Virus record (IMG/VR): IMGVR_UViG_3300025154_000106
Coordinates: 1 to 59,121 of that record
Strand: one strand, 5' to 3'
Length of the DNA: 59,121 nt
DNA from: a virus
Taxonomy: Duplodnaviria > Caudoviricetes
The first letter of the stretch is position 1. Each line of letters starts with the position of its first letter. This document shows positions 1,400 through 59,121 of the stretch, piece after piece. Position numbers and translations under genes: made by a program. The notes under the pieces were generated by a model, which saw nothing but the letters and a program-made list of their open reading frames with translations, ran no database searches and was not told where the DNA came from.

Positions 1400-2167
1400 A
1401 TGACAATTGAAAATCAGGTTGCAGATTTGAGTAATGAAGTAAAGCCCCAGACTGTGGAAGCAGTGCAGGGTACAGGTGGAGCTGCAGGGTCGGTGACCAC
1501 CCAACCATTACCAGATGCCGGATCAGATAATAAGTTGGAAGTTTTGGAAAAGACTTTACAGGCACGTGAACAGGACATAAATAAGTTGAAATCAACTTAT
1601 GATAAGCAGATGGCACAAACCAAAAAACAGTTCGAGGAACAACAACGACAACTCGAAGAAGAACTGCGTAAAGTCAAGATGTCGGGAATGACTGATGAGC
1701 AAAAGCTACAATTTGAACGACAGTTAGAATTAGAACAAGCTCAACAGTGGCGAGAGGAAGCACTAAGACTAAAGCGTGAAAAGGAAGAAGCAGAAATTTC
1801 AGCTAACTACGCTCAATACTTTATTGAGAATGGTGTACCGAAAGAGAAGCTGGTTACCAACGCTGGTGTCGATGCACTTGTACAGTCTGGATGGGAAGGT
1901 ATCACACACGAACTGAACTCATTGAAGACTAAAGTTTCTGAGTATGAAAAGAAACTAACCCAGGGTACTGTACTCGAACAACCTCAAGCTAACCAACCCC
2001 AACAGCCAATTCAACAACGGTCTCCAATTACTGATACCCCGTCTCCAACCTCCAGGTCATGGACTTGGACAGATGTCATAGACAAGTATGGCTCTGTTGA
2101 TGAATACTTCAACAAGGTTGAAAGACAGGAAATTTCGCCAGTACCACTGGTGCAACCCAAACGATAA
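1400..2167 (+). CDS. Capsid scaffolding protein
   Basis: Glu/Gln/Lys coiled coil immediately upstream of the major capsid protein. GGAG RBS supports ATG 1400 over the ORF-track TTG start. Confidence 0.7.
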   Translation: MTIENQVADLSNEVKPQTVEAVQGTGGAAGSVTTQPLPDAGSDNKLEVLEKTLQAREQDINKLKSTYDKQMAQTKKQFEEQQRQLEEELRKVKMSGMTDEQKLQFERQLELEQAQQWREEALRLKREKEEAEISANYAQYFIENGVPKEKLVTNAGVDALVQSGWEGITHELNSLKTKVSEYEKKLTQGTVLEQPQANQPQQPIQQRSPITDTPSPTSRSWTWTDVIDKYGSVDEYFNKVERQEISPVPLVQPKR

Positions 2168-2183
2168 ACCTTGGAGGTAAATC

Positions 2184-3185
2184 ATGGCTATTGATACTTC
2201 AACTCTTTCCGACGCGGTTAAGGCAGCTTACGAGATGAGGCTGTTGACACGTGCAATTCCACGTTACGTACATGGTAGATGGGCTATGAAAGCCCGCATT
2301 TCCAAACGTGGAACGTATGAAGTTAGGCGTTACGGTTCTCTCTCAGCAAACACCACAGCTCTAACTGAAGGTACGACCCCTGCTGAAACTGCTACCCCAA
2401 CTCCCACTTTGATTACAATGACACCAGCTTTCTACGGAAGTTGGATGTCCTTTACTGACCTGGCAGATCTCGAAATCATTGATCCCATTCTGTCAGAAAT
2501 GTCAAGTATTCTTGGTGAACAGGCAGGTCTTTCTGCTGACACACTGGTTCGTAATGAACTGAATACTTATGCAACTATTGATTACTCTGCTGGTCAATCA
2601 GCTGTAGCCAGTCTTGACGCTCCTGCTCACAACATTTCCTATGCGGATATTGTTGAACAGTATGCTGCGTTAGAGGCTTCCTCAGCTCTGCCAGTAGATG
2701 GAGAAGACTTCATCCTCATCCTGCACCCACACTCATGGGCATCATTGATCTTAGATCCTACATTCGTGAACATGTTCATTCAGGAATCCCCCAACTCTGC
2801 TATTCGTAGTGGCTATGTTGGTCGCATTCTTCGTATGAAAATCTTCGTTTCGTCCAATGCCTATGAATGGGCAGACGTTGGTGTAGGAAGTACTACAGAT
2901 GTTTACTCAGCCCTCTTTATTGCCAAAGAATCCTATGCGATCCTTGGTCTGAGCGGTATTGAAGAACCCAAAGATGTAGATAATCAGGGTGACAATGGTA
3001 AACCTCTTACTGGACAACAGATCAAACCCGTTGAGATCATTATGAAACAAGTAGGATCTGCTGGTTCGTCCGATCCTTTGAACCAACGTGGTTCATTGGC
3101 TTGGAAAATGACATTGACTCCTGAGGTTTTGAATGCTGACTGGATTCGCTGCATGAAGCACACCAATATCTTCTCAGATTCCTAA
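2184..3185 (+). CDS. Major capsid protein, N4-gp56-like (HK97 fold)
   Basis: 333 aa with LTEGTTP, LGEQAG and C-terminal DPLNQRGSLAWK motifs typical of this family. GGAGG RBS. Confidence 0.88.
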   Translation: MAIDTSTLSDAVKAAYEMRLLTRAIPRYVHGRWAMKARISKRGTYEVRRYGSLSANTTALTEGTTPAETATPTPTLITMTPAFYGSWMSFTDLADLEIIDPILSEMSSILGEQAGLSADTLVRNELNTYATIDYSAGQSAVASLDAPAHNISYADIVEQYAALEASSALPVDGEDFILILHPHSWASLILDPTFVNMFIQESPNSAIRSGYVGRILRMKIFVSSNAYEWADVGVGSTTDVYSALFIAKESYAILGLSGIEEPKDVDNQGDNGKPLTGQQIKPVEIIMKQVGSAGSSDPLNQRGSLAWKMTLTPEVLNADWIRCMKHTNIFSDS

Positions 3186-3213
3186 TCAGTGATTGATATA
3201 AAGGAGGCTTACT

Positions 3214-3642
3214 ATGGCAATTGAAATCCTGAAACCACCTCCGTTCATCCCTGGACAAGGGATGTCGGAGCTAATGAAAGACGTTGTACGTATTGCATAC
3301 TCGACTACACTGGCGGTAAGTACTACAATGTCCACAGCTATAGAACTCTTTAAAGTTCCTGCCAATACCTTGATTCTTCAGGTTGGTGCAGAAGTTACTA
3401 CCACATTTGATGGTGGCTCTAGTGATGTGGGTTTGACCATCGGAGATTCCGATGATGCAGACGCACTCTTAACACTGGAACTGTCCAGCTTATTGGTTAC
3501 TACTGGTGGAACTTTATTGAAAAACTATACAGCTGCTCAAGCTATTCTCGCTTACTTTACACCTGGTGAAGGTGTTACTGGTGGGCTGAGAGTTTGGGCA
3601 ACATTCAAAACCGATTCAAATACGCAAGAAATTGCGGAGTGA
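3214..3642 (+). CDS. Putative capsid decoration/cement protein
   Basis: Small beta-rich protein after the major capsid gene. Shares (L/F)T(I/V)GDSDDxD with the next gene. Confidence 0.55.
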   Translation: MAIEILKPPPFIPGQGMSELMKDVVRIAYSTTLAVSTTMSTAIELFKVPANTLILQVGAEVTTTFDGGSSDVGLTIGDSDDADALLTLELSSLLVTTGGTLLKNYTAAQAILAYFTPGEGVTGGLRVWATFKTDSNTQEIAE

Positions 3643-12970: not shown

Positions 12971-13873
12971 ATGAACAATGTCTACTTACCACTTATTATG
13001 AACGGAGAAGAACCTATGGCAGATGGTGAATATATTTCATTTGGACAAACATTTACGAAGGTACTTGATGTAAGTAAATTTCAAGATAAGAATGAAACTG
13101 CAGCAAGACCAGACTTCAAGAAAGCCAGAGCCAAAGGTACACGTGGTGTAGTTATCAGGGTATCTGCAAACTTTGGAGTAGACGAGGATGCTGAGTACAA
13201 CTGGAAAGCTGTACAAGATGCAGACATGATACCCCTTGCTTATCACTGGTTTGAATACCGGGCAGGCATTATGAAAAGTGGTGGTGATCAGGCGAAGACA
13301 TGCTTAGATACAATAGATATGATTAATGGTACTGTAGAAAACGTGCCCATCTTTTTGGACTACGAACAGCCATCAGCAGCATGGCCTCCTCTGCCTGAAT
13401 ACTACACAAGTATTGCTAACTTATCCAGGTTTTATGAAGTAACAGATCCCAACACAAAACGGTTGACGGGGCTATATGGTAACCGGAATACTGTGTATGC
13501 CATATCCCCCGTTCCAACCCGTACATTATTGAGACCCTTCTGGCCAGCAGGCTGGATATTCAGCAGGCTTATGAGAGCAGAAGAAATTACTGGACTATCA
13601 TGGAGACCTAATATATCTCCGTGGACTAAGTTTACTGTATGGCAGTGTGGTCTTACGTATGGGTATGAGTATGGGATGGAGTCAGCAGAAGTAGATTTGA
13701 ATTTCTTCAATGGAACGTTTGATCAATTGGCTGAGTTTGCTGGGTATACTATACCTACAGAACCGACACAGCCTCCCATTGTTTTTCCAGAATTAGAAGA
13801 AAGGGTAAGTAAGTTAGAACAGGACATCCAAAATTTACGACAAGAGGCAATACTACATGGGTGGTTTGTCTAA
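12971..13873 (+). CDS. Endolysin, glycoside hydrolase family 25 muramidase
   Basis: LDVSKFQ, AYHWF, IFLDYE, WQ and VDLN motifs. An alternative start at 13016 has a GGAG RBS. Confidence 0.85.
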   Translation: MNNVYLPLIMNGEEPMADGEYISFGQTFTKVLDVSKFQDKNETAARPDFKKARAKGTRGVVIRVSANFGVDEDAEYNWKAVQDADMIPLAYHWFEYRAGIMKSGGDQAKTCLDTIDMINGTVENVPIFLDYEQPSAAWPPLPEYYTSIANLSRFYEVTDPNTKRLTGLYGNRNTVYAISPVPTRTLLRPFWPAGWIFSRLMRAEEITGLSWRPNISPWTKFTVWQCGLTYGYEYGMESAEVDLNFFNGTFDQLAEFAGYTIPTEPTQPPIVFPELEERVSKLEQDIQNLRQEAILHGWFV

Positions 13874-24308: not shown

Positions 24309-24491
24309 TCATCTCCTTCCGTTTACAGATTCTTTCCAAGCAGTCATGGCTTCGATAGCCTTATCGACATCTGGTTCGGAGAGCCTGAGCTGTGGGTTAG
24401 ACCACGTACCGAACTTCATGTGCATCACGACTGCATCTTGGCTGGTTGTATCCCAATCAATACTAACTTTTGTTTTTATTAATTCATCCAT
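24309..24491 (-). CDS. Hypothetical protein
   Basis: GGAG RBS, coupled to the helicase stop. Confidence 0.5.
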   Translation of the reverse strand: MDELIKTKVSIDWDTTSQDAVVMHMKFGTWSNPQLRLSEPDVDKAIEAMTAWKESVNGRR

Positions 24492-26032
24492 TATTCTCCT
24501 ACTTGTAGTAAATCATTCACGGGTATGTCATCAAAGTTTATGACCTGTCCCAATACTTCTTGTTTCTTCTGTATGATCTGATGTATGCGGTCATCTATTG
24601 TACCCTTGGCTATGATGTAGTGTACCGTAACGGGATTGACTTGACCTATCCTATGGATACGTGAGTATACCTGTTCCTCTTTACCGGGACTCCACGATCT
24701 CTCAACAAAGATAAGAGTTGAGGCTGAGTAAAGGTTGATCCCTTCCCCACCTGCCTCAGATATAATAGCTACCCGTACATCTGGATCATTCAGGAATGTA
24801 GAAACTAAATCATTACGATCTTTCTGTGGTGTATCACCAACAATCTTTATCATTTTATAATCTTTTAGTTTCTTTTCCAACTCTGCCACCACTGCTTTGT
24901 GTATGGCAAACAGCACTACCTTCTCACCACCATTCAATACTTCCTCAGCTAACTCAACGCCCGGCTCTACCTTGAGCATACCAATAGCCTGACGTACAGC
25001 CATGAACCGTTGGGAGTTAGACTTAGACTTGGTATCTTCTGTTGCCAGCTTGAGTGCATCGAAGTATTGTGTAACCAGTTTCTCAGTCTCACTGATGTAC
25101 GGGAAGTAGTTCTTTGTTACAGGTGGGAGATCTTTCAATACTTCCTGCTTCGTTCTGCGTAACATGATATGACTTAGCTTTTCTTTTAGTTCAGGTAAGT
25201 TGTCAGCCCCATCAAAGTCCCAATGTCCGAAGTGATCTTGCTTAGCATCACAGTATCTATGTGCAAACTTCCAGAAGGAACTCCACACGGTGGGAAGCAG
25301 TAAGTTTAGTATTGGGAATAATTCTTTTGGTCTATTGAGGAAAGGTGTACCTGATAATCCTATTACATTTGGTGCATTCAATAAGCGTGAGGCTCGTGAT
25401 CTCTGTGATCTCATGTCCTTGAGGTAGTGTATTTCATCATAGATAACCAGATCAAAACTGAAACCTCTCATCATGTATACCCTGTTAGTAAACACAGGAT
25501 AAGAACAGATCAATACTCTTGGTTTGTTATTGAAATCTTTTGTGAACCCCTGAATAACTTCTGAGTCCCATCCCAACCACTCCTTGATCTTCTCCTTCCA
25601 CATGTATGTTACACTGGCTGGACTGACTATCAATACCTTGGCTGGTGCTGTCTCTTCCATGTATGCCAGGGTTTGGATGGTCTTCCCTAACCCTGGATGG
25701 TCAGCTAACAATGCCCTACCACCTGAAGCATGAAGGAACTCAAGTCCCTCTACCTGATAGGGGTACAGTTTTGTACGTGATGTCTTGGTAACCTTATGAT
25801 TGTTACGGGATAACTTCAGTGTAACTGCATCAATAAAGAAACCATACTCACGTGCGAAGGAAGCAACAAACAAAGCGTGCATCTTGGTGGGGGGTAAGTA
25901 CCATAACTTTTCATCACCATCAAAACGTGCATCAGGTATTGCTTTTACTTTTTCTTTCAGTCCATTTGAATAGGGGAACTCTAATTCTATTCTATATTTT
26001 TCAGGATTATAAGTGATCGCCTTTACTGTCAT
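24491..26032 (-). CDS. SNF2-family (SMARCAL1/HARP-like) helicase/annealing ATPase
   Basis: LYPYQ, ADHPGLGKT, DEIH, LSGTP, GEGINL and QVYSRIHRIGQ motifs, with an N-terminal HARP-like segment. ATG 26032 has a GAGG RBS. Confidence 0.9.
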   Translation of the reverse strand: MTVKAITYNPEKYRIELEFPYSNGLKEKVKAIPDARFDGDEKLWYLPPTKMHALFVASFAREYGFFIDAVTLKLSRNNHKVTKTSRTKLYPYQVEGLEFLHASGGRALLADHPGLGKTIQTLAYMEETAPAKVLIVSPASVTYMWKEKIKEWLGWDSEVIQGFTKDFNNKPRVLICSYPVFTNRVYMMRGFSFDLVIYDEIHYLKDMRSQRSRASRLLNAPNVIGLSGTPFLNRPKELFPILNLLLPTVWSSFWKFAHRYCDAKQDHFGHWDFDGADNLPELKEKLSHIMLRRTKQEVLKDLPPVTKNYFPYISETEKLVTQYFDALKLATEDTKSKSNSQRFMAVRQAIGMLKVEPGVELAEEVLNGGEKVVLFAIHKAVVAELEKKLKDYKMIKIVGDTPQKDRNDLVSTFLNDPDVRVAIISEAGGEGINLYSASTLIFVERSWSPGKEEQVYSRIHRIGQVNPVTVHYIIAKGTIDDRIHQIIQKKQEVLGQVINFDDIPVNDLLQVGE

Positions 26033-26078
26033 ACCAATCCTCTCTAGTTTATAAGGTCGTAACCAAACTTGTAGATAT

Positions 26079-26106
26079 ATCTTACCACGAATAAAATGGA
26101 TTGCAA
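26079..26106 (-). promoter_or_regulatory. Promoter for the leftward replication operon
   Basis: On the minus strand: TTGCAA, 16 bp, TAAGAT with a TG extension. Confidence 0.5.
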
Positions 26107-26151
26107 GGGGCAAATGTTCTATCTTAGATTAGAAAATTCTCATCTGATTGT

Positions 26152-26180
26152 TTGGTATTAGAAAGGGAAAGTGGTATAAT
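26152..26180 (+). promoter_or_regulatory. Promoter for the rightward 26.2-27.7 kb operon
   Basis: TTGGTA, 17 bp, TATAAT with a TG extension, followed by an AAGGAG RBS. Confidence 0.65.
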
Positions 26181-26199
26181 AAAGGGGAAGGAGAATAAC

Positions 26200-26526
26200 A
26201 TGGAAGAAAAAGAATATGTAAATTATACAAGGATACCAAACATAATACTAGATGACGAAAGGGTGTCAGTCTATGCACTGAATTTGTACGCAGTAATACT
26301 AAGAACATGTAAGATACACAAGATGTGTTGGAAGAGTATAGATACTCTAACCAAAGAAGCTAAGATGAGCAGGACGTTAGTAATAAAGTCGCGGAAGGAA
26401 TTGGAAAAACTTGGATACATTGAGACGGGAACATTTCAGGATGGAAATTTATTAAGGTATGGATCGAGACCAACAGATATAAAAGATACAAACGAAAAGT
26501 ACCAGTCCATATATGGACTCTATTAA
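26200..26526 (+). CDS. Winged-helix (HTH_36-like) protein resembling the N-terminus of phage replication initiators
   Basis: YTRIPNIILDD, CWKSIDTL, MSRTLVIKSRKELEKLGYI. Confidence 0.7.
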   Translation: MEEKEYVNYTRIPNIILDDERVSVYALNLYAVILRTCKIHKMCWKSIDTLTKEAKMSRTLVIKSRKELEKLGYIETGTFQDGNLLRYGSRPTDIKDTNEKYQSIYGLY

Positions 26527-26614: not shown

Positions 26615-27034
26615 ATGGCAGCTACACGCATGAATAAACTAACAGAAGATATGAGAAACGAATACAAAGAGAGAAGGAAGATGAGCAAGGAAGATTGGAA
26701 GTATATCTATGTGCTTACCCAAACGATCTACCCTTTTCTTATCAAACGTCTTGAGCAGTTCGTCAGTACGTGGGGGGCAGAGAACATACAGCTTGATCAT
26801 ACCTTGATGGACTACCCACCCAGGATCATGGTCTTTGCTGACTTCAGTAGGGGTGGGAAGATGTTAGAAGATTTTGGTACTATGATGGGTGAGTATTGTA
26901 TCAAGTTCAACCTTGTATCATGGTGTATTGATGGGCATGTACCACATGGATGGGACGTAAGAAAGAATTACATATTGAAAAAGGATATAGAGAAAGAGAT
27001 GGAGATAAAAGATAAGTATGAATCCAATGGATAG
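26615..27034 (+). CDS. Hypothetical protein
   Basis: ORF in the rightward operon. Confidence 0.55.
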   Translation: MAATRMNKLTEDMRNEYKERRKMSKEDWKYIYVLTQTIYPFLIKRLEQFVSTWGAENIQLDHTLMDYPPRIMVFADFSRGGKMLEDFGTMMGEYCIKFNLVSWCIDGHVPHGWDVRKNYILKKDIEKEMEIKDKYESNG

Positions 27035-27500
27035 AAAGATAGTTATTGATCTATACAATGAGATGGTAGCAGAGAGGGGTAAGGAAGTTTCGTATCGTGA
27101 AGTGGCAGAGGAGTTAGCCAGTCGAGGGGTATTCAATCCAGATACACGCAAGCCCTATACCTTATCGACCATGTATTATATTCTTTCACGTACCCCCGAA
27201 GGTAAGAAGAACAGGAAGCAACAGGTCAAGAAGCAACCGTTACTTATCCTGATGAGGAAGTACCCGAAGATCAGTCAGTGGATGGTAGATAACTTAGAGG
27301 GTGAGGTTATAGATGAGTTCGCAGTTACACCTGAGATCGTAAAGGGCAAGCACGTGTATGGTTTTGCTGATGTACCCAGCATGATGGGAGCAAGTAAGAT
27401 GTGGTGGGTATGCAGGGGTAACAGTAAGGTATTGATAACCGAGGATGAGATACCAGAGGATGTAACATGGAGACAGGTAGAGATAAGGGTACTGTATTGA
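27018..27500 (+). CDS. HTH protein fused to a Csx16-like domain
   Basis: N-terminal YREVAEELASRG..NP....YTLSTMYYIL (recombinase-type HTH). C-terminal VTPEIVKGKHVYG resembles Csx16-like proteins. Confidence 0.45.
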   Translation: MNPMDRKIVIDLYNEMVAERGKEVSYREVAEELASRGVFNPDTRKPYTLSTMYYILSRTPEGKKNRKQQVKKQPLLILMRKYPKISQWMVDNLEGEVIDEFAVTPEIVKGKHVYGFADVPSMMGASKMWWVCRGNSKVLITEDEIPEDVTWRQVEIRVLY

Positions 27501-27709
27501 TAGACAGATGTTATGTTTGCTTGAAACCAGCAGTCAATACCCATGAGATAGTACCGAGAAGTAAGGGTGGTGAGCTGGAGAGTTCTAATCAGGTAAGGCT
27601 ATGTCTTTCCTGCCATGAGAAGATACACCGAGAGGGTACAGCCAAGTGGCAGGAAAGATTATTGTTAGCCAAGCAATACTATGAGGAAGTCTTTATTCCA
27701 GATCAATAA
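27467..27709 (+). CDS. Small HNH endonuclease
   Basis: CYVC, THEI..RSKGG, N...LCLSCHEKIH. Confidence 0.8.
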   Translation: METGRDKGTVLIDRCYVCLKPAVNTHEIVPRSKGGELESSNQVRLCLSCHEKIHREGTAKWQERLLLAKQYYEEVFIPDQ

Positions 27710-28187
27710 TAACCCTGATCAACTCACCTTCTGTATTGTAGATAGGTAAAGTTCTAGGTTTATTCCTAGTTGTTATAGTACCTTCAATAAACCATTTATC
27801 TTTCTTCAGTGGTGGTACAAGTCCAGAGTTTATTAGTTTTTCTAGTTCACTGATGTTACTTGCACTGTGTTGTTCTAAATCTTTCAAGTCCTGTGTAAGT
27901 TCATGGTCTTTGGATGTCATGCGTGCTGAAAGTTTCTCATCAAAGTATTGTTTCCATAGTTTAGTACGTACTTCTTTTCTTAGAGGAGCAAGAGCTTTGG
28001 TAAGGGCAACCCGTCTACCTTTCTCATAAGAAAAGTTATCCTTTGGATTACACACAGCCCTACCCTCACTCAGAAAATCAAGCATACTGTTCTCACTCTT
28101 CAGGATATAGCAGTGAGTAAAGCGTTTATCATCACCATCAATCATTCCATGTTTGAAATCAATTTTGTATTCCATCATCATCTCCAT
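27693..28187 (-). CDS. Hypothetical protein with an N4 gp49/Sf6 gp66-like motif
   Basis: AVCNPKDNFSYEKGRRVALTKAL. Confidence 0.45.
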   Translation of the reverse strand: MEMMMEYKIDFKHGMIDGDDKRFTHCYILKSENSMLDFLSEGRAVCNPKDNFSYEKGRRVALTKALAPLRKEVRTKLWKQYFDEKLSARMTSKDHELTQDLKDLEQHSASNISELEKLINSGLVPPLKKDKWFIEGTITTRNKPRTLPIYNTEGELIRVIIDLE

Positions 28188-29243: not shown

Positions 29244-29519
29244 ATGTTACCAAACACATCTATGCCACGTAGTCCTATGCCCGGTGGGCAAGCACCTGCT
29301 GGTCAGCCACCGATGGGACAGCCACCGCAAGGTGGTGGACAGGGAGCTGATCAAGGTCAAGTAGTAGAAGCAATCAAGCAAGTTCTAACTAGGGTCAAAG
29401 CCTTAGCAGATCAGAACGGGATTGACTTCATGTCTATTGTGAATGAGATGGCGAGTTCAGGTAGTAAGGGTAAAGCACCCATGCCACCGCCACCTGTGCC
29501 CAGTCAGCCACCCATGTAG
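29244..29519 (+). CDS. Pro/Gln/Gly-rich small protein in its own inverted transcription unit
   Basis: TG-n-TATAAT (29213-29221), AAGGAG RBS, downstream hairpin at 29546-29568. Confidence 0.7.
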   Translation: MLPNTSMPRSPMPGGQAPAGQPPMGQPPQGGGQGADQGQVVEAIKQVLTRVKALADQNGIDFMSIVNEMASSGSKGKAPMPPPPVPSQPPM

Positions 29520-51011: not shown

Positions 51012-54000
51012 ATGGTAGATGCCTTTTGGAAAACCGGACAGTTTGCTCAGTTGCTCAGTGCTGTACGAGAACAACGAGCCAAACAGTCTGCTATAAACAA
51101 CTATGCCTCCACATTTACTCAAGCAGTAAATAAATCGAAAACAGAAAAGCCTCCTGTAGATCCAAACAAGAAGGCTTTATTTGATTGGGGTCAGCGTACC
51201 TATGGAGTAAAGATACCTACCCAAACAGTAGATCCTGCTTTGAGGTTGGATGATAGAAAGCAAGCGTTACTTCACAACCAGTTCTTTGCTGATAAGCGAG
51301 TTGCTGACAGCATTGAACAGGCAAGAATAAGTGCATGGCAGAGAGACCAGACTTTCAAAAGTCAACAGGTAAAGAAAGATGTTCTTACTGGTAAGATAGA
51401 GAAGCCAGCTGGTCAAACTTTTGAAGAGTGGAATCAAGCAAGGCTGGAAGAAGAGAATGCTCTGGCAGCCAGCATCAAGTTCGATCCTGAACTAAAGCCT
51501 GGGGATAAATTGTATCTGGACTACAAACAAAATGTAGTAACCAACAAACCAACAGAGCTTGAGCTATTCAAGTACATGGGAGTTTACATTCCTGTTGAGA
51601 GAAACAAGGCAGGAAACTTAAGCTACCCTGAAGGATACGAAGATCTTGTTATTGATATGACCAAGCTGCAGGATGCTACCTATACACCAGAGGTAGATAT
51701 ATTCCTGCGTGGGTTAGAGTCCAAGTATGAAACAGCCAAGCCCCCAACTTTTGCTTCAAACATACAACCAACCGGGACACCAGCTTACTTGAATGTCTTG
51801 ACAAACGAGATAACAAATGATCAAACTCAGATCCCGTTGTATTGGGATCAGGATACAAAACAAGTTACCCAGTTTGAAGAAAACTATAAGGGTGAAAAGA
51901 ATAGTCCAGTTGTTCTAAATCAAGAGACATTGGATTCTCTTGGTACTGGATTACAACAGGCTATGCAAGTATACATAGCCAACGAACAGAACGCTGACTG
52001 GGGTGTAGGGTCTAACCCTGCAGCAGTATCCATGATAGCCCCTATTGTTACCAGAGAGAACGTATTGGATGGAGTAACAGTTAGGTTTCCATCTGCTACC
52101 AACCAACAGGAAACACAAACAGTAAACTTAGATCCAGTTACTAACGCACCAACCTTCTTAGAAAAGTTCCCAGAGAAGCCTGAGTTCATTAGAAATCTTC
52201 CTGAGCCATTGAGTAATGGATTGGCAGCAAACATATTCAGTGCCACCTGGTGGGAAGTAATGTGGGGTGGTAATGTAACCAAGCAGTTGATGAATACCCC
52301 AACAAGTAAGTTTATGAGTAAGCCAATATTGGGTACAGTATCCTTGAATACGGTTATGGCTGGAGCTGGGGTAGGCTTTACTCTTCTATATAATATACCT
52401 ACAACTCTAGTGAGACAAACGACCTGGCTATTTGGAAATGAGAAGGCTGGAGAAGACTTAAATAATTCTTGGGAGAACTTTGAAGATAAGCTAAGCGTAC
52501 TTCGACAAAGTTACAATATGGACAAAGCTAAGTCCATAAACAAGAATGAAACAAAGACCAACCAGATAGATGAAGCCAGAGCTACTACTCAGTCTATCAG
52601 TGAAGAGTTAGTGAAGTGGAGAAGCGGAACAGTAAAGGGATGGGACAAGTTATCTGATCAACAGAAGGTAACCCGTATTGCTGATCTGGAAGCTCAATGG
52701 GAAAAGTCATTGGAGTATGAAGCAGCCTTAAATAAACTCCAGGCAGACACCATTGGAAAGTTCTCAGAACAGGCTGGGTATTCTGCACAATATTACCGGG
52801 CTGGCAATCTTCCAGTAGCCACAGCTGAATTAGCTTACGGGTATGAGAAGTTGTACGAAGGGGCAGACTGGAATTTAGCCAAGCAATATGCTGGTTCAGT
52901 AAAAGAACACATGTTCACTCCTAATCTGCTTGATCTTCAGAATCGTGGAAGAATACCACAGGAGCAAATACACTTTATGTTGGGTGTACGTGGAATGTCA
53001 GAGCCTGAGATTTCATCTTTTGAACAGTTCATCAACAGCGGATATGTTACTTCCAATATCTTATCCAATGTAGACAATGATACGAAAGCATCCATGCAGC
53101 GTAACCAGACTACAACTGTGTTGGGTGCGAACATGTTATTCCTGCAGGATGTAGCCAAGAAGTCTATTGAGACTGGTCGTACTATGACTACGGCAGAGCA
53201 GTATGATTATCTTGTAGATGAGTGGTTACCAAAGTATCTATACAATTCAGCTACTAACCCCAAGAGGTTAGAGAATACTTACTACAATACTAACCAACAA
53301 CTAACCGCTGACATGGCGAATACAATGTTCCAGCAGTTACAGGTATCCAATAATTATCTGGCCATGGCCAGTCAATATGAAGAAGGAAGCCCAGAGCAGC
53401 AGGAAGTATTGAATAATGCCAAGACATGGATGGATGAGGCTTACCGATTAGGGGATAGAGTAATTGAATACCACTCCAGATCTGGTAATCTCAATCCTTA
53501 TGCAGCATGGACATATAATTTGAGTGAGGAAAAGAAGAACGAGTTCAGGAAGAATGTAGTAGAAGCTATGTTCCAGGCTGGAAGACTTCTTTCAATGGAA
53601 GAGATAACACAGATCTCCTACATTACGCAAGACCCAGCGTTAGAAATGTTGGGTGAGATATTCTTAGATGTAAACAACCTTGCACTCCCTATAGTTGCCG
53701 GGCTGAGTAAGTCATTGATAAAGAGCTTGGGTAGAGTAGCTATGAAAGTTCCATTCATAGGTAAATCTGCTACTGCAATCTCAAACAATACTATAGTAAA
53801 GACTTTACTTGATCGTTCAGTACAGACTGTAGCTTCAAAGCAGGGCAAGGCAGCTACAAATATCTTCTGGTCTGTTGCTCAGACCAAGCCAGCTACTGAA
53901 TCAGAGTTTGTAAAACAGGTATCCAATATTGCAGCATGGGCAAAGCAAGCTACCACAGTAACAGATGAGTTGACTGAAGGTGCAGCTAAGCTATTGAAAG

Positions 54001-57000
54001 AGACTCCATTCAGGGGTGTACCACCAACCATTTCTGCACAGGAGTCATTGATTCAATTAGCCAGAACTATTGATCCAGATGAGTGGGCAGGAATAGCAGC
54101 CAAGGCATGGGAAGCTACACATGAATTCTATGTCAAGGGTGTAACCAAACAAATACTAAGTCAGAACCCAGGCAAGCTGATAAGTGATCCAGTCATAGCC
54201 AATAATATTTCTGATGCAGTGGAGAGACTGGTAGCAAGTTACCGGGGAACATCAAGACTTGGGCAGGAATTTGGTGAGGCATTCAGACAGACATCCTTAC
54301 GAGGAAACCTTGTGAAGTTGGGATCAAACTTAGTTCCTAAAGATACTATCTATGGTGCTATTGCACAGAAATATGGTACTACCAGAGCAGGACAGTTGCT
54401 GGGTGGTATTGCTGAGGTTCAGTCCCGGTTTATGAAAGCATGGATCTGGGCTACGTTAGCTAGACGACCAGCGTGGGCTATCTTCAACTTCGTTGACAAT
54501 ACATTCAGATATACAATGGCTTCAATTCGGTATGGTGGTCAGTTCGGGGATGATATGAAAGCCATGTTGAAAATGTATGGAGATACCGAAGGGGTAATGA
54601 AGACCGTCAAGCAGGGTCAATACAATGTCAAGGCTGAGATAGAAAGTTCTGGGTTGATGAGCTTGACAGATGAGGCGTTTACCAAAGCTGCATCCATGGG
54701 TATTGACAAGAACATGCTCAGCCAAAACCCGTTGTCCTTCCTATCTTATTATAAAAGTTTTGTACAGATAAATGGCACAGGTAAGAACCTGTTAGGTAAA
54801 GTTCTTGGTACTTTCACAGCTTTCCCTGCCAGCATCAAGGCATTGAACAACTCTATTGAGATGGGCATGAAGACTATGATGTACATTCGTTTCTATGAAA
54901 AGAACATAGCCAAGATGAATCATCTCTTCCTTACAGATGTAATAAGTCATCTGTCTGAAGTAGTACAGGCTAAGGGTCTAAGTGCTATTGAAGCAGACAT
55001 GATCCAGAAGCACGTATTGAATTCTATTAACAGTTCAGGTGGGAATGCTGCCAAACTGTATGACTTATTGAGACACAATAGAGTAGATCCAAAGTTATCT
55101 GGATACAATATTTATATCCCAGAGAGCTTAAGAAATGCTGAGTGGTTTGATGAGGCTGCACAGAGAGCCTTCCTTTATGATGTAACTACACGCTTCCAGA
55201 AATTCCAGGCAAGGTTAGCTAAGAGTAATGTTAAAGAAATCTTGCCAGAACACCTTGATCAATTCTTTGATGAGACACTGAGTGTACTCCAGGCAGAATC
55301 CAATATGATTGTGCAGGGGATGAACAGGGATTACTCCATTGTAACTGGTGCAGAGATAGGATCGAATGGAGAGCAAGTAAAAGCTGCTCGCTATTCTAAA
55401 TCCATAGAGAAGGAACTAAAGGGTGTAGATAAGGATACTGCAGATTTCTTAAAGAATCTGGATGATAGCAAACCTTTTGACAGAAAGACTAAGGGTAAGA
55501 TCAAGAAGTATCTACAGGACAATGACATCAAGTTTGAAGATACAGATGAAGGGTTGAAGGATGGTCTTGCCAAGTTACGAGCAAAGAGAGATGAGTACCC
55601 TGACAGCCAACCACGTGCTGCAACCCCAGAAGAACTCAAAGCTATTGATGAGAATAAAGAAGGGGTGCTTACTAACAGTGAAGAGCTTACTGGTTGGGAT
55701 GCTAACGTTCACAGTGCTGATGATAAGGTTTCTGGAAAATGGAATGAGAGAGCACTCTGGGAATCCAAGACACATGAAGCAATTGCCCAGATAGAAAATG
55801 TAAAAGGCTTTAGTGGATTAACCCCAGCAGAACTTACAAAGCTGCAGAGTATAGCAAAGGGTATGCTAGATAGAACAAACAACATTAGCTCCAGGGTAAA
55901 CAAATTCTTTAGGGAAGTCTACCCCGGCCCAGGCATGATCAACAATAAAGCAAGATGGGAGGATTACTATGCAAGAGTAATCAATCAACTTGACAACCGT
56001 ATTGGATACCAAAACGCAGAAGTATTAGTTCCTCTACAGAACGGAACATTAAAAGCTACTGCAGATGTGAACATGGAAGATATATTACAGCTGTCTGGTA
56101 TTGAACTGCTCTATGATACAGATGGAATGATTACTTCCTTCCGTGCTATCAACCCATTCAGTGGGAAGCCAGAGCTGGTTGAGAATACTGTATTTGTAAA
56201 CCAACTCAAGAGACGGTTGGGTATCAATACAAAGGCAGACGCACGTAGAGGATTGGTAGATGACTACTTCAAGATAAAGGGGCAAGCTCCTGTTGGAGAG
56301 ATGGAACGTATCAACATAGCTTACAGTTTGAAAGTACCAGAAGTCCGACCACTCGAAACCATGGTAGCAGATGATGTAAGACTTGACCTGGCCATACGTG
56401 AGGGAAGAAATCAGGATGCTGCAGTATTGTTGGCAGAGAAATTCCAGTTCCCATTGATGTATGAGAAGGGTGGACAGTTACTTCCCAACTATGCACACCT
56501 ATTGAACAAGGCTAAGAAAGAATTAGGATTGAAGGGTGATGATGCAATCAAGACATTGAATGACATCAAGCCTGAAGATCTATATAAAGTTTTGAAGAAC
56601 TGGTATGAAACAACTACTGGCGTTACACTTGCCAGCATAAAGGGAAACCTGAAAGAGGGAATGGTAAAAGCCATTTCAAATATTTTCAATACCCCAACCA
56701 ACATAGCTGAGGGAATATTTGAAACCTACAACAGACTTGCCCTTACTATTGGTAAGCACATGGGTGGTAAGAGTGAGGCTGAGGTATGGCAGGATGTTCT
56801 GTATGGTGTAATGAAAGCAGGAGATTCTGGTGCAGTAGATGTAGTTCGTGCAACAGATACTTTATTCTGGTTCAACACAGAGGTTAGAAACTATGTTACC
56901 AATCTTGTCGGTAATGGTAAGGTAGTCAAGGGAATAAAGAGACCCATTACTAAAGCTGAACTTCTCAAGGCTCTCAAGAAACGATTCAATCAGGAACGCT

Positions 57001-59121
57001 TAGAGTCCTCTGGAGTATTAGAGTTACTGGCAGGTACTGGTAAAGTAACCAGAGAACAGATCATAAAAGCTCTGGATGAGAATGAACGCTTTATTGTTTC
57101 AGTTCCCAGAGGAAAGACAAAAGAGTGGCAGATCAACATACTTGATTACAACCATTCCAACCGGGCTAACATTACAGCTGATTTAGTTTCAGAAGAGTTA
57201 GCTGATGGGAACATAGCCATCGGGTTGAAAGTAAAGAGTATGGCTGGAGATCTGGATGAACGATCTAAGCAACGGTTACTTAGATGGGCAGCAGAAAACC
57301 AGTACAGCTTTATTGAATTCTCCCCATCACAGATAGAACGCTTTCCTACAATTACTGTTCAAGGTGTATTCGCTGAGGGTACGTATGGTATTACTTCCTT
57401 TATAAAGGGAGAGCTGGATAAGCAACAGGCAATCATTCGTGGATTTACAAATGCTAACCCAACAACTGCTATGGAAGAACTGTTCCACGCTTTTGAACCA
57501 TTCCTACCAGCTGAACATTATAAAGTTCTGGACGAGTGGGCAGGGAAGATAGCAAAGAAACAGATGAAAGCCAACCCCAATATTGGATTACCTTTTGATA
57601 ACTTGAAGAGTGAGGTAATGGCGAAGGGTTTCCAGAAGCATGTCGTTACGGGTAAGGGCGTACCGAAAGACATAGCTGAGATCTTTGATACGATGAGGAA
57701 TACCATGCTGGCTATTTATCGAAAGATGAAAGACTGGTTTGCTGGCATTGAAGTTACTCCAGAAGTAGAACAAGTATTCAATAAGATGTTGGATGCTGAC
57801 TATGTAGCTGAGAGAGTAAAGAATGTACCAAAGCCAAAGAGATCACAGAAGCCTCTATATCAACAGGTTGGAGACACAGAAGGTAAGAGAATTGTAGATC
57901 CTTTCTACTTGAAGTCTGCTGATATAGTAAACCGATTAGTTCCAGAGAAGACAACAGCTGGAAAAGTTGGGGCTATATTGAAGAACAACATTAAGAAAGA
58001 AGAGTACGAGTGGTTGGGGTTGAATGACTTTTTGAAGGGTAAGGATAAGGTTACCAAGCAAGAAATGTTAGACTACATAAAGCAGAACAACGTAGAGATT
58101 GTTGAGATAAAGAAAGGTGATTGGAGAGGTGCTGACCATGAGCTGCAGAGCAACATATCAAAGAGAGTAGATGTACTATTTGAACATACAGAAGCTACTG
58201 GAAGAGCAGCAGGTGTTAGTGATGTTGAAGCTCGTGCTGCTGTTGAATCTTTTGTAAAAAGCTCTGATGCAGATGTAGCACTAGAAGTAAATAGTATAGC
58301 TAGAATATATCCAGACCTTAAAAATTATGAACCGCTTATAAAAGCACGGGAAGTATGGAAGAGAATAAGTCGTACTGCTAAAGTACCAACAACCTTTGAA
58401 TCACTCACAATTCCTGGGGGGAAAAACTATAGAGAGCTATTACTTACTCTTCCAGAGCTGGAGCCACAGTTTTTTGTAGAGCAGCATTGGGGCGATATAC
58501 CAAATGTGTTTGGACATATTCGTATGCAGGAATTCGCAGACGTAGATGGAAAGCGTGTTCTATTTATTGAGGAAATTCAATCTGACCTACATCAGAAGGG
58601 CAGAAAGTTAGGATATGGTAAGCCACTTACTGAGCACCCACAGGTTAAGTTAGAGGATTTTGAGATAGTTCCAAGTATGTATGGAAGGTACAGAATAGCT
58701 CTTCCGCACAATGGATCTCAGTGGGAAATATTTATGGACACTGCTGATGGCACACCAGCTGGGTGGATAAACCTGGTAGATGATATGGTTTATGATACAC
58801 CAAGAGAAGCTGTGGATGGATTAAACACATACTTTAAGGGTATTACTTTAAGGGATTGGAACAGAGGGATTAGTGGAATACCCAATGCCCCATTCAAAGA
58901 TACATGGGAAGAGTTAGCACTCAAGAGAATAACGAGACTGGCAAGTGAAGAAGGATATGATAGAGTAGCATGGACTACAGGTAAGATGCAGGCTGATAGG
59001 TATGCTCTTACAAACTATGTAGATGAAATATCATACAAGAAAAATGCTAATGGAAACTACACAATCTATGCAAAACCAAAAAATAGTCAGACTGCCATAG
59101 ACAATATTGCTGGGCAGGATA
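51012..59121 (+). CDS. Giant internal virion/large polyvalent protein (>=2703 aa), 3'-truncated
   Basis: ATG 51012 after AGGA. The same frame is still coding at 57471 and at the window end, and its absence from the ORF track is consistent with no stop. Contains PGGKNYRELLLTLP, VLFIEEIQSDLHQ and PNAPFKDTW..LALKR motifs of large polyvalent proteins. Confidence 0.85.
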   Translation, partial: MVDAFWKTGQFAQLLSAVREQRAKQSAINNYASTFTQAVNKSKTEKPPVDPNKKALFDWGQRTYGVKIPTQTVDPALRLDDRKQALLHNQFFADKRVADSIEQARISAWQRDQTFKSQQVKKDVLTGKIEKPAGQTFEEWNQARLEEENALAASIKFDPELKPGDKLYLDYKQNVVTNKPTELELFKYMGVYIPVERNKAGNLSYPEGYEDLVIDMTKLQDATYTPEVDIFLRGLESKYETAKPPTFASNIQPTGTPAYLNVLTNEITNDQTQIPLYWDQDTKQVTQFEENYKGEKNSPVVLNQETLDSLGTGLQQAMQVYIANEQNADWGVGSNPAAVSMIAPIVTRENVLDGVTVRFPSATNQQETQTVNLDPVTNAPTFLEKFPEKPEFIRNLPEPLSNGLAANIFSATWWEVMWGGNVTKQLMNTPTSKFMSKPILGTVSLNTVMAGAGVGFTLLYNIPTTLVRQTTWLFGNEKAGEDLNNSWENFEDKLSVLRQSYNMDKAKSINKNETKTNQIDEARATTQSISEELVKWRSGTVKGWDKLSDQQKVTRIADLEAQWEKSLEYEAALNKLQADTIGKFSEQAGYSAQYYRAGNLPVATAELAYGYEKLYEGADWNLAKQYAGSVKEHMFTPNLLDLQNRGRIPQEQIHFMLGVRGMSEPEISSFEQFINSGYVTSNILSNVDNDTKASMQRNQTTTVLGANMLFLQDVAKKSIETGRTMTTAEQYDYLVDEWLPKYLYNSATNPKRLENTYYNTNQQLTADMANTMFQQLQVSNNYLAMASQYEEGSPEQQEVLNNAKTWMDEAYRLGDRVIEYHSRSGNLNPYAAWTYNLSEEKKNEFRKNVVEAMFQAGRLLSMEEITQISYITQDPALEMLGEIFLDVNNLALPIVAGLSKSLIKSLGRVAMKVPFIGKSATAISNNTIVKTLLDRSVQTVASKQGKAATNIFWSVAQTKPATESEFVKQVSNIAAWAKQATTVTDELTEGAAKLLKETPFRGVPPTISAQESLIQLARTIDPDEWAGIAAKAWEATHEFYVKGVTKQILSQNPGKLISDPVIANNISDAVERLVASYRGTSRLGQEFGEAFRQTSLRGNLVKLGSNLVPKDTIYGAIAQKYGTTRAGQLLGGIAEVQSRFMKAWIWATLARRPAWAIFNFVDNTFRYTMASIRYGGQFGDDMKAMLKMYGDTEGVMKTVKQGQYNVKAEIESSGLMSLTDEAFTKAASMGIDKNMLSQNPLSFLSYYKSFVQINGTGKNLLGKVLGTFTAFPASIKALNNSIEMGMKTMMYIRFYEKNIAKMNHLFLTDVISHLSEVVQAKGLSAIEADMIQKHVLNSINSSGGNAAKLYDLLRHNRVDPKLSGYNIYIPESLRNAEWFDEAAQRAFLYDVTTRFQKFQARLAKSNVKEILPEHLDQFFDETLSVLQAESNMIVQGMNRDYSIVTGAEIGSNGEQVKAARYSKSIEKELKGVDKDTADFLKNLDDSKPFDRKTKGKIKKYLQDNDIKFEDTDEGLKDGLAKLRAKRDEYPDSQPRAATPEELKAIDENKEGVLTNSEELTGWDANVHSADDKVSGKWNERALWESKTHEAIAQIENVKGFSGLTPAELTKLQSIAKGMLDRTNNISSRVNKFFREVYPGPGMINNKARWEDYYARVINQLDNRIGYQNAEVLVPLQNGTLKATADVNMEDILQLSGIELLYDTDGMITSFRAINPFSGKPELVENTVFVNQLKRRLGINTKADARRGLVDDYFKIKGQAPVGEMERINIAYSLKVPEVRPLETMVADDVRLDLAIREGRNQDAAVLLAEKFQFPLMYEKGGQLLPNYAHLLNKAKKELGLKGDDAIKTLNDIKPEDLYKVLKNWYETTTGVTLASIKGNLKEGMVKAISNIFNTPTNIAEGIFETYNRLALTIGKHMGGKSEAEVWQDVLYGVMKAGDSGAVDVVRATDTLFWFNTEVRNYVTNLVGNGKVVKGIKRPITKAELLKALKKRFNQERLESSGVLELLAGTGKVTREQIIKALDENERFIVSVPRGKTKEWQINILDYNHSNRANITADLVSEELADGNIAIGLKVKSMAGDLDERSKQRLLRWAAENQYSFIEFSPSQIERFPTITVQGVFAEGTYGITSFIKGELDKQQAIIRGFTNANPTTAMEELFHAFEPFLPAEHYKVLDEWAGKIAKKQMKANPNIGLPFDNLKSEVMAKGFQKHVVTGKGVPKDIAEIFDTMRNTMLAIYRKMKDWFAGIEVTPEVEQVFNKMLDADYVAERVKNVPKPKRSQKPLYQQVGDTEGKRIVDPFYLKSADIVNRLVPEKTTAGKVGAILKNNIKKEEYEWLGLNDFLKGKDKVTKQEMLDYIKQNNVEIVEIKKGDWRGADHELQSNISKRVDVLFEHTEATGRAAGVSDVEARAAVESFVKSSDADVALEVNSIARIYPDLKNYEPLIKAREVWKRISRTAKVPTTFESLTIPGGKNYRELLLTLPELEPQFFVEQHWGDIPNVFGHIRMQEFADVDGKRVLFIEEIQSDLHQKGRKLGYGKPLTEHPQVKLEDFEIVPSMYGRYRIALPHNGSQWEIFMDTADGTPAGWINLVDDMVYDTPREAVDGLNTYFKGITLRDWNRGISGIPNAPFKDTWEELALKRITRLASEEGYDRVAWTTGKMQADRYALTNYVDEISYKKNANGNYTIYAKPKNSQTAIDNIAGQD

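Follow-up and report, generated by a model that had tools for sequence, protein, structure and literature searches.

The 59,121-bp virus record IMGVR_UViG_3300025154_000106 from IMG/VR (~90% complete, 41% G+C; the whole of it is referred to here as the window) encodes a 160-residue protein in which a winged-helix-like domain is joined to a small α/β domain that resembles Csx16, a family found in type III CRISPR loci. The gene for this two-domain protein, the focal gene of this study, is the third in a cluster of four genes that run in one direction with overlapping or closely spaced ends, in the order HTH_36/initiator-like gene, 139-residue open reading frame (ORF), focal gene and HNH endonuclease gene; the cluster is divergent from the gene for an SNF2-family helicase (Table 1). 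The first 34 nucleotides of the HNH gene lie within the 3′ end of the focal gene. A preliminary description of this DNA had read the focal ORF as a helix-turn-helix (HTH) domain of recombinase type fused to a Csx16-like domain, and the ORF, with the motifs quoted from it, is real. Translation may begin at either Met1 or Met4.

The protein belongs to a small family of about 28 sequences, all metagenomic. Exhaustive phmmer comparison with 1.84 billion representatives identifies 21 homologues at E ≤ 1e-3, nine of them at E ≤ 1e-10. All are 98–178 residues long, with no longer fused forms among them, and 20 of the 21 contain both domains; the shortest, P0006 (98 residues), comprises the C-terminal domain only and may be either a genuine stand-alone protein or the product of a truncated gene call. 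Word-based searches with the family profiles A1 and A3 return family members only. Compared directly with Pfam, PHROGs and NCBIfam, the window protein gives nothing significant, the best rows being NOGCT (E 0.0016) and Recombinase (E 0.036), both under their cut-offs. A PDB sequence search with this single protein finds no match, and a PDB profile search gives weak rows for the N-terminal domain only (SBDS, E 0.034; the sigma-54 RpoN domain, E 0.26). In a tblastn search of 50,697 phage records there is no match for the window protein and there are just two rows, both at chance level, for the homologue P0023. Scans with hidden Markov model (HMM) libraries were made with 23 aligned members, no more than two of which match any one PHROG family (best E 0.012), and conservation was read from 28 distinct sequences, including six locus-derived copies, two of which duplicate stored proteins.

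The AlphaFold2 (AF2) model of the whole protein, built with the family alignment, has a predicted local distance difference test (pLDDT) value of 87. Its least certain part is the linker, whose length varies in alignment A1 (pLDDT 62 for the block of residues 61–70). Within the N-terminal domain, conservation is highest in a loop with the pattern N40-x-x-T43-x-x-P46-[YF]47-[ST]48, in which T43 and P46 are each present in 93% of sequences, and which precedes the helix formed by residues 49–57. Judged by a score above 21.1 bits together with a resolvase catalytic domain, the protein is not a member of the serine-recombinase family Recombinase (PF07508).

The C-terminal domain, folded alone, gives a pLDDT of 94.4 and a predicted TM-score (pTM) of 0.82, and consists of five strands and three short helices. 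Its conserved residues are P74, W88, T104, G110, [RK]111 (93%), Y114 (93%), G115 (100%), A125 (89%) and D143 (79%), of which W88, [RK]111, Y114, G115 and A125 make up its signature. Csx16 has been reported as an experimentally confirmed ring nuclease specific for cyclic tetra-adenylate, cA4 (bioRxiv 10.1101/2024.09.24.614671; PMC12409355), with a fold in which helices flank a five-stranded sheet (PMC12409355), and the model of the ~90-residue C-terminal domain has this same architecture. Csx16 also has many stand-alone homologues in viruses. A review, citing Makarova 2020, describes conserved His, Arg and Asp/Glu residues in Csx16 that are compatible with catalysis (PMC8284326); any equivalence of [RK]111 and D143 to these residues would be putative.

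The relationship to Csx16 is seen through the relatives of the window protein. The family is represented here by Pfam PF09652 (Cas_VVA1548; cut-off 25 bits), NCBIfam TIGR02620 and PADLOC PDLC01635 and PDLC01356. PDLC01635 is matched by four of the 23 aligned members (best E 2.2e-4) and PDLC01356 by three, which makes these two the most frequent of the four PADLOC families matched, the other two being matched by one member each. PF09652 is matched by three of the 23 (best E 0.0074), sharing the top place in the Pfam scan with Recombinase, and TIGR02620 by one. Scanned singly, five of ten proteins (P0014, P0017, P0019, P0021 and P0023) match Csx16 in a common register that starts from the first strand; the remaining five (P0015, P0022, P0016, P0012 and P0018) give no Csx16 match. 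The alignments are nearly complete for P0017, in which residues 81–156 correspond to model positions 7–86 of 91, and for P0023, in which residues 76–157 correspond to positions 2–87, each with ~19.5 bits and E ~2.2e-4. In a six-frame search, the copy in the phage genome G003 scores 20 bits over positions 2–87 (E 3.5e-5 for that genome) and is the sole match to PDLC01635 in the genomes G001–G005. PF09652 was not found in the window record, pSYSA, pTT27, E. coli K-12 or 50 viral records. The window protein in turn matches P0023 with E 6e-16 over residues 4–124, a span that takes in both domains.

Structural comparisons lead to the same family. For window residues 70–160 the three nearest clusters in the ESM Atlas are all Csx16 (scores of 0.85, 0.84 and 0.84, with 195, 191 and 191 shared features) and are 83–95% viral; for residues 72–164 of P0023 the scores rise to 0.92 (221 features shared), 0.91 and 0.91, and every one of the 30 hits belongs to the Csx16 set. 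The Atlas model of the P0023 C-terminal domain superimposes on a mostly viral Csx16 cluster of 293 members with a template modelling (TM) score of 0.74 over 92 residues, compared with 0.52–0.59 for the next rows, which include a formyltransferase and a flavodoxin. We conclude that the C-terminal domain is probably a divergent branch of the Csx16 family, through a chain in which every link is sub-threshold or transitive; the homology is remote, in register, and established via family members. The Csx16 resemblance of the preliminary description is upheld to this extent, and only by way of relatives. By the formal HMM cut-off the protein falls outside Csx16; the fold is common to both and the ancestry probably is also.

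A homodimer of the C-terminal domain, a model that the preliminary description had suggested building, is predicted with a score of 0.57 (runs of 0.60, 0.57 and 0.57) when two copies are folded with alignment A3, the highest of three controls giving 0.00. Among solved structures, 20 of 30 homodimers and one of 23 monomers attain the mark. At least 92% of contacts agree between runs, and the pLDDT of the partner is at least 87. In full-length numbering, the predicted interface pairs the last strand (152–160) across the axis and includes residues 79–82 after strand 1, 115–123 after strand 3, 128–132 and 137–141. This model supports a homodimeric C-terminal domain. An interface in which the C-terminal loops of the strands meet at a two-fold axis would fit a CARF-like ligand site, and would fit a plain dimer interface equally well. 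Since the Y114-G115 region lies in the predicted interface, its conservation could be purely structural.

Several known systems bear comparison with the protein. It shares with Csx16 the ~90-residue five-stranded α/β fold, as reflected in the register of its relatives on the model and in the TM score of P0023, and a dimer is predicted for it; it differs in its fusion to an N-terminal winged helix (the nearest Csx16 representatives in the Atlas have 92–114 residues), in the lack of a conserved His, in scores that stay under the family cut-offs, and in a gene position beside HNH in a replication-type cluster. In Csx15, which is related to Csx16, a cA4 sponge function is reported to predominate (PMC13148439). 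Csa3 proteins are described as cA4-responsive transcription factors of archaea and bacteria, built from a CARF domain and a winged HTH (PMC8699464, PMC8844856). As in Csa3, the focal protein would join a CARF-like dimer to a winged-helix DNA-binding domain, the binding functions here being putative, but the order is reversed, with the CARF domain N-terminal and the winged HTH C-terminal in Csa3, and Csa3 is cellular whereas the focal protein is viral. No search shows sequence similarity to Csa3, and no Csa3-family match is present at E ≤ 10 in the Pfam, NCBIfam and PADLOC results.

The union of an HTH domain with an anti-CRISPR (Acr) protein has precedents in AcrIIA1-type fusions. Acr proteins are likewise paired with anti-CRISPR-associated (Aca) regulators, and the focal protein, as a candidate Acr, resembles such arrangements in that a phage counter-defence domain is joined to, or controlled by, a DNA-binding regulator; no sequence relation was found to these or to AcrIII-1/Crn2, AcrIII-1 being reported as a phage cA4 nuclease. 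A winged helix followed by a C-terminal Rossmann-like dimer also recalls the Rex redox repressors, and with them the idea of a nucleotide-sensing dimeric repressor. Foldseek with the whole model does give weak Rex rows (3ikt_A, E 0.38; 2dt5, 1xcb, 5zz7 and 2vt3, E 0.6–1.3). These matches are not significant, however, with root-mean-square deviations of 12–15 Å, and the focal C-terminal domain is half the size and has no detected NAD-binding family signature. The literature searched describes no Csx16-HTH fusion, although the supplementary tables of phage ring nucleases, which were outside that search, might list one.

The position of the gene is the same wherever the family has been read in its genomic context. 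Seven loci were read (the window, L001, L005, L006, L007, L008 and L009), all on viral contigs of 15–66 kb. In each of the seven a homologous small HNH gene (72–98 residues) directly follows or overlaps the focal gene, and the SNF2 helicase is encoded upstream, on the complementary strand. The window and L001 have replication-initiator-like genes and a small unassigned ORF interposed before the focal gene; the 139-residue ORF of the window has no match in Pfam or PHROG, and only in L001, among the seven, is a homologue (113 residues) found at the equivalent position. In L005–L009 the focal gene and its HNH neighbour stand alone, behind about 500–700 bp without long ORFs, which may have a role in regulation or serve as an origin. 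The palindromes found ahead of the gene in these five loci have arms of 6–9 bp and occur in about the number estimated for chance, and are not counted as candidate sites. The gene lies outside any type III CRISPR locus, in a phage replication-type cluster, and the viral Csx16 homologues are likewise without such context.

Table 1. Positions of the focal gene, its domains, neighbouring genes and repeated elements (window coordinates unless a locus is named).
Feature	Position	Strand	Remarks
Focal two-domain gene	27018..27500	+	160 aa, stop codon included in coordinates; 21 homologues; AF2 model pLDDT 87
N-terminal winged-helix-like domain	27018..27215	+	residues 1–66
K/Q-rich linker	27216..27236	+	residues 67–73; lowest-confidence part of AF2 model
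C-terminal Csx16-like α/β domain	27237..27497	+	residues 74–160, 87 aa
One-mismatch copy of dispersed palindrome AGTAACNGTTACT	27232..27244	.	within focal coding sequence, codons 72–76
Small HNH endonuclease gene	27467..27709	+	80 aa; Pfam HNH E 1.5e-6, HNH_5 E 1.9e-6; PHROG HNH families
Upstream ORF, function unassigned	26615..27034	+	139 aa; 17-nt overlap with focal start
HTH_36/replication-initiator-like gene	26152..26526	+	Pfam HTH_36 E 4.4e-6; PHROG replication-initiation and DnaD-like, E 7e-11 to 4e-5
SNF2-family helicase, lineage marker	24491..26113	-	Pfam SNF2-rel_dom E 9.8e-31; phrog_62 E 9.5e-106
Palindrome, perfect copies	4107, 12957, 23807, 30557, 34633, 34672		
Palindrome, one-mismatch copies	19083, 26547, 27232, 29551, 42855, 49865, 57268		
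P/G/Q-rich small protein	29244..29519	+	L001 8208..8486; L019 540..785; L021 2534..2809
ORF-poor stretch between gene pair and divergent helicase	L005 5494..6000; L006 5302..5994; L007 5486..5991; L008 4334..5000; L009 4425..4988		

Beyond these loci, 80 viral loci carrying helicase relatives were searched with HMMs of the focal family and of HNH. The focal family is present in six (L010, L012 and L014–L017), all on contigs already known to hold it, and in L011 and L013, which are close relatives, the upstream DNA is too short to judge. In L018, a sister phage whose helicase is 40% identical, a close HNH is retained (E 3.4e-34), its start overlapped by an unrelated ORF of 82 residues; in L019 and L021 the HNH relatives are more distant and the focal family is absent, and L020 has a partial HNH relative. 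The remaining 68 loci (L022–L089; helicase ≤37% identical) contain neither the focal family nor HNH. A whole-record profile search finds no family member in five of the helicase-relative records, of which two have a completeness of 96% or more. This distribution confines the focal gene, among the helicase loci, to one clade of uncultured phages of ~60 kb. The presence of HNH without the focal gene in L018, L019 and L021 also indicates that the focal protein is dispensable for HNH, and weakens the idea that HNH is its obligate partner.

Several features of these neighbourhoods are recorded in passing. In L018 (272..771 and 1435..3492) the 82-residue ORF that occupies the place of the focal gene is tryptophan-rich, and on the way to the helicase lie a second HNH protein of 200 residues and a 173-residue protein with a DPPW motif that we would guess to be a methyltransferase. 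The SNF2 helicase of L009 (1845..4424 (-)) has 859 residues rather than ~515–540, and its ~340-residue insertion, placed right after the GLGK Walker A motif, looks like an intein. The gene convergent with HNH has a C-terminal motif, CNPKDxFxYxKGRRxA, that is common to three phages (window 27693..28187 (-), L001 6722..7306 (-) and L006 2692..3024 (-)); the window copy has no Pfam or PHROG match. The P/G/Q-rich small protein of Table 1, of unassigned function, takes its name from its N-terminal half, has a conserved helical core QVLxRVKxxADxxGIDF and is found at a similar place in relatives. At the far end of the window, an ORF of at least 2,703 residues (51012..59120 (+)) continues past the window end.

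A dispersed palindrome, AGTAACNGTTACT, which extends to the 15-bp AAGTAACNGTTACTT, was examined as a possible binding site. The copy within the focal gene that the preliminary description had pointed out is there, with one mismatch. At no more than one mismatch there are 13 copies in the window, against 0.21 expected, and nine of the 13 lie outside ORFs of at least 100 residues; several are found just before gene starts or after gene ends, one ending 1 nucleotide before the ATG at 12971. Enrichment extends to G001 (11 sites) and to G002 (10 sites), both relatives, whereas G003 has no site. The palindrome has the look of an operator or promoter element used by some dimeric regulator. As an operator of the focal protein it fares badly in both directions, since G002 and G003 have similar putative recognition helices despite their ten sites and none, and the window and G002 share the palindrome yet differ in their putative recognition helices. 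Palindrome and putative recognition helix do not vary together, and the palindrome is therefore not assigned to the focal protein.

We tentatively favour, as the best of several possible readings, a dimeric DNA-bound protein that would bind cA4 or a related nucleotide rather than cleave it. The phage protein would then be of one-component type, made up of the winged-helix-like domain, a short basic linker and a diverged Csx16-family (CARF-like) domain. The Csx16-like dimer would still bind an adenine-nucleotide signal, most likely cA4 from a putative type III CRISPR system of the host, and, because no histidine is conserved, would hold this signal rather than cut it quickly, while the N-terminal domain would keep the protein on DNA. 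Two outcomes could follow: a self-regulating anti-CRISPR sponge, as an Acr-Aca-type fusion, or a regulator that responds to the signal and controls its own operon, the HNH gene included. The binding-only sensor, sponge or anti-CRISPR put forward in the preliminary description is consistent with the predicted dimer and with the absence of a conserved His.

A number of observations weigh against this interpretation. Neither Pfam nor NCBIfam yields a Csx16 match for the window protein at E ≤ 10, nor does the PADLOC alignment scan; its relatives score 13.5–20 bits on the Csx16 models, less than the Pfam cut-off, and by curated HMM cut-off the family is not a member of Csx16. Histidine is conserved at no position among the 28 family members. 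The loop after strand 1, where the [ST]-R-H motif of Csx16 would lie, differs by subgroup, with M-RKYP, N-PxYP and ET-R-P types. Binding of DNA by the N-terminal domain is probable, as judged from the predicted fold alone. The place of the gene within a replication-type cluster does not vary, and HNH comes after it every time; typical anti-defence genes occupy patchy, cassette-like positions.

Several of these points would be natural if the protein were a ligand-independent DNA-binding component of the early or replication module, in which the Csx16-derived fold serves for dimerisation only and the protein acts either as a regulator or as an accessory or DNA-targeting partner of an HNH nuclease to which it would be translationally coupled. 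We consider this possibility almost as likely as the nucleotide-binding one. The variable loop, where a ligand is presumed to bind, the fixed place in the replication cluster and the coupling to HNH are all explained if the fold now does no more than join two winged helices. The adjacent or overlapping HNH gene in seven of seven loci, the constant proximity of the SNF2 helicase, the initiator-like gene upstream in the window cluster, the lack of a conserved His and the use of the Y114-G115 region by the predicted interface are in keeping with it. Against it, L018 keeps HNH without the focal gene and the HNH relatives of L019 and L021 are also without it. A winged helix with a Rossmann-like dimer is, moreover, the usual build of a ligand-sensing regulator, as the appearance of Rex in the weak Foldseek rows recalls.

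The two other explanations are less likely than either of these. Chance or convergence, in which a generic small Rossmann-like domain would have no evolutionary link with CRISPR ring nucleases, is unlikely: Csx16 leads the PADLOC results, leads Pfam jointly with Recombinase and is present in NCBIfam, the matches share a register and take in almost the whole model in the case of P0017, P0023 and the homologue in G003, and the structural agreement of P0023 with Csx16 stands well clear of that with the next rows. Within the nucleotide-binding interpretation, the specific notion of an eavesdropping switch, in which the Csx16-derived dimer would sense cA4 and the winged helix would re-programme its own operon with the coupled HNH gene, is somewhat more doubtful still. 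Least probable is an active viral ring nuclease that degrades cA4 as Csx16 does, with the N-terminal domain as a built-in Aca-like autorepressor: Csx16 is reported from 69 type III loci in a set of 38,742 genomes and from two of 28,114 phage genomes (bioRxiv 10.1101/2024.09.24.614671; PMC12409355), the Atlas Csx16 clusters are 83–100% viral, some phage and plasmid Crn4 ring nucleases are described with N-terminal extensions of 60–80 residues to which no function is assigned (PMC12830947), and Csx20 homologues are reported in predicted Aca-regulated phage operons, Aca proteins being usually HTH regulators (PMC13551039), but the conserved His reported for Csx16 has no counterpart in the 28 sequences, which makes fast ring-nuclease activity doubtful, the strand-1 loop differs between subgroups, and similarity to the Csx16 models remains under the family cut-offs.

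Viruses are known to counter signalling immune systems with ring nucleases and nucleotide sponges. The family described here is small and lends itself to experiment, its window member having 160 residues, looking soluble and being predicted to dimerise. If its C-terminal domain does not bind cA4, a ring-nuclease fold would have been re-used as the dimerisation module of a phage DNA-binding protein. If it still binds cA4, the protein would be either an autoregulated anti-CRISPR of the sponge type or a means by which the phage senses CRISPR signalling. The eavesdropping switch, if true, would allow the phage to alter its replication or attack programme once it has been recognised, and would give the first example of a viral transcription factor under the control of a CRISPR second messenger.
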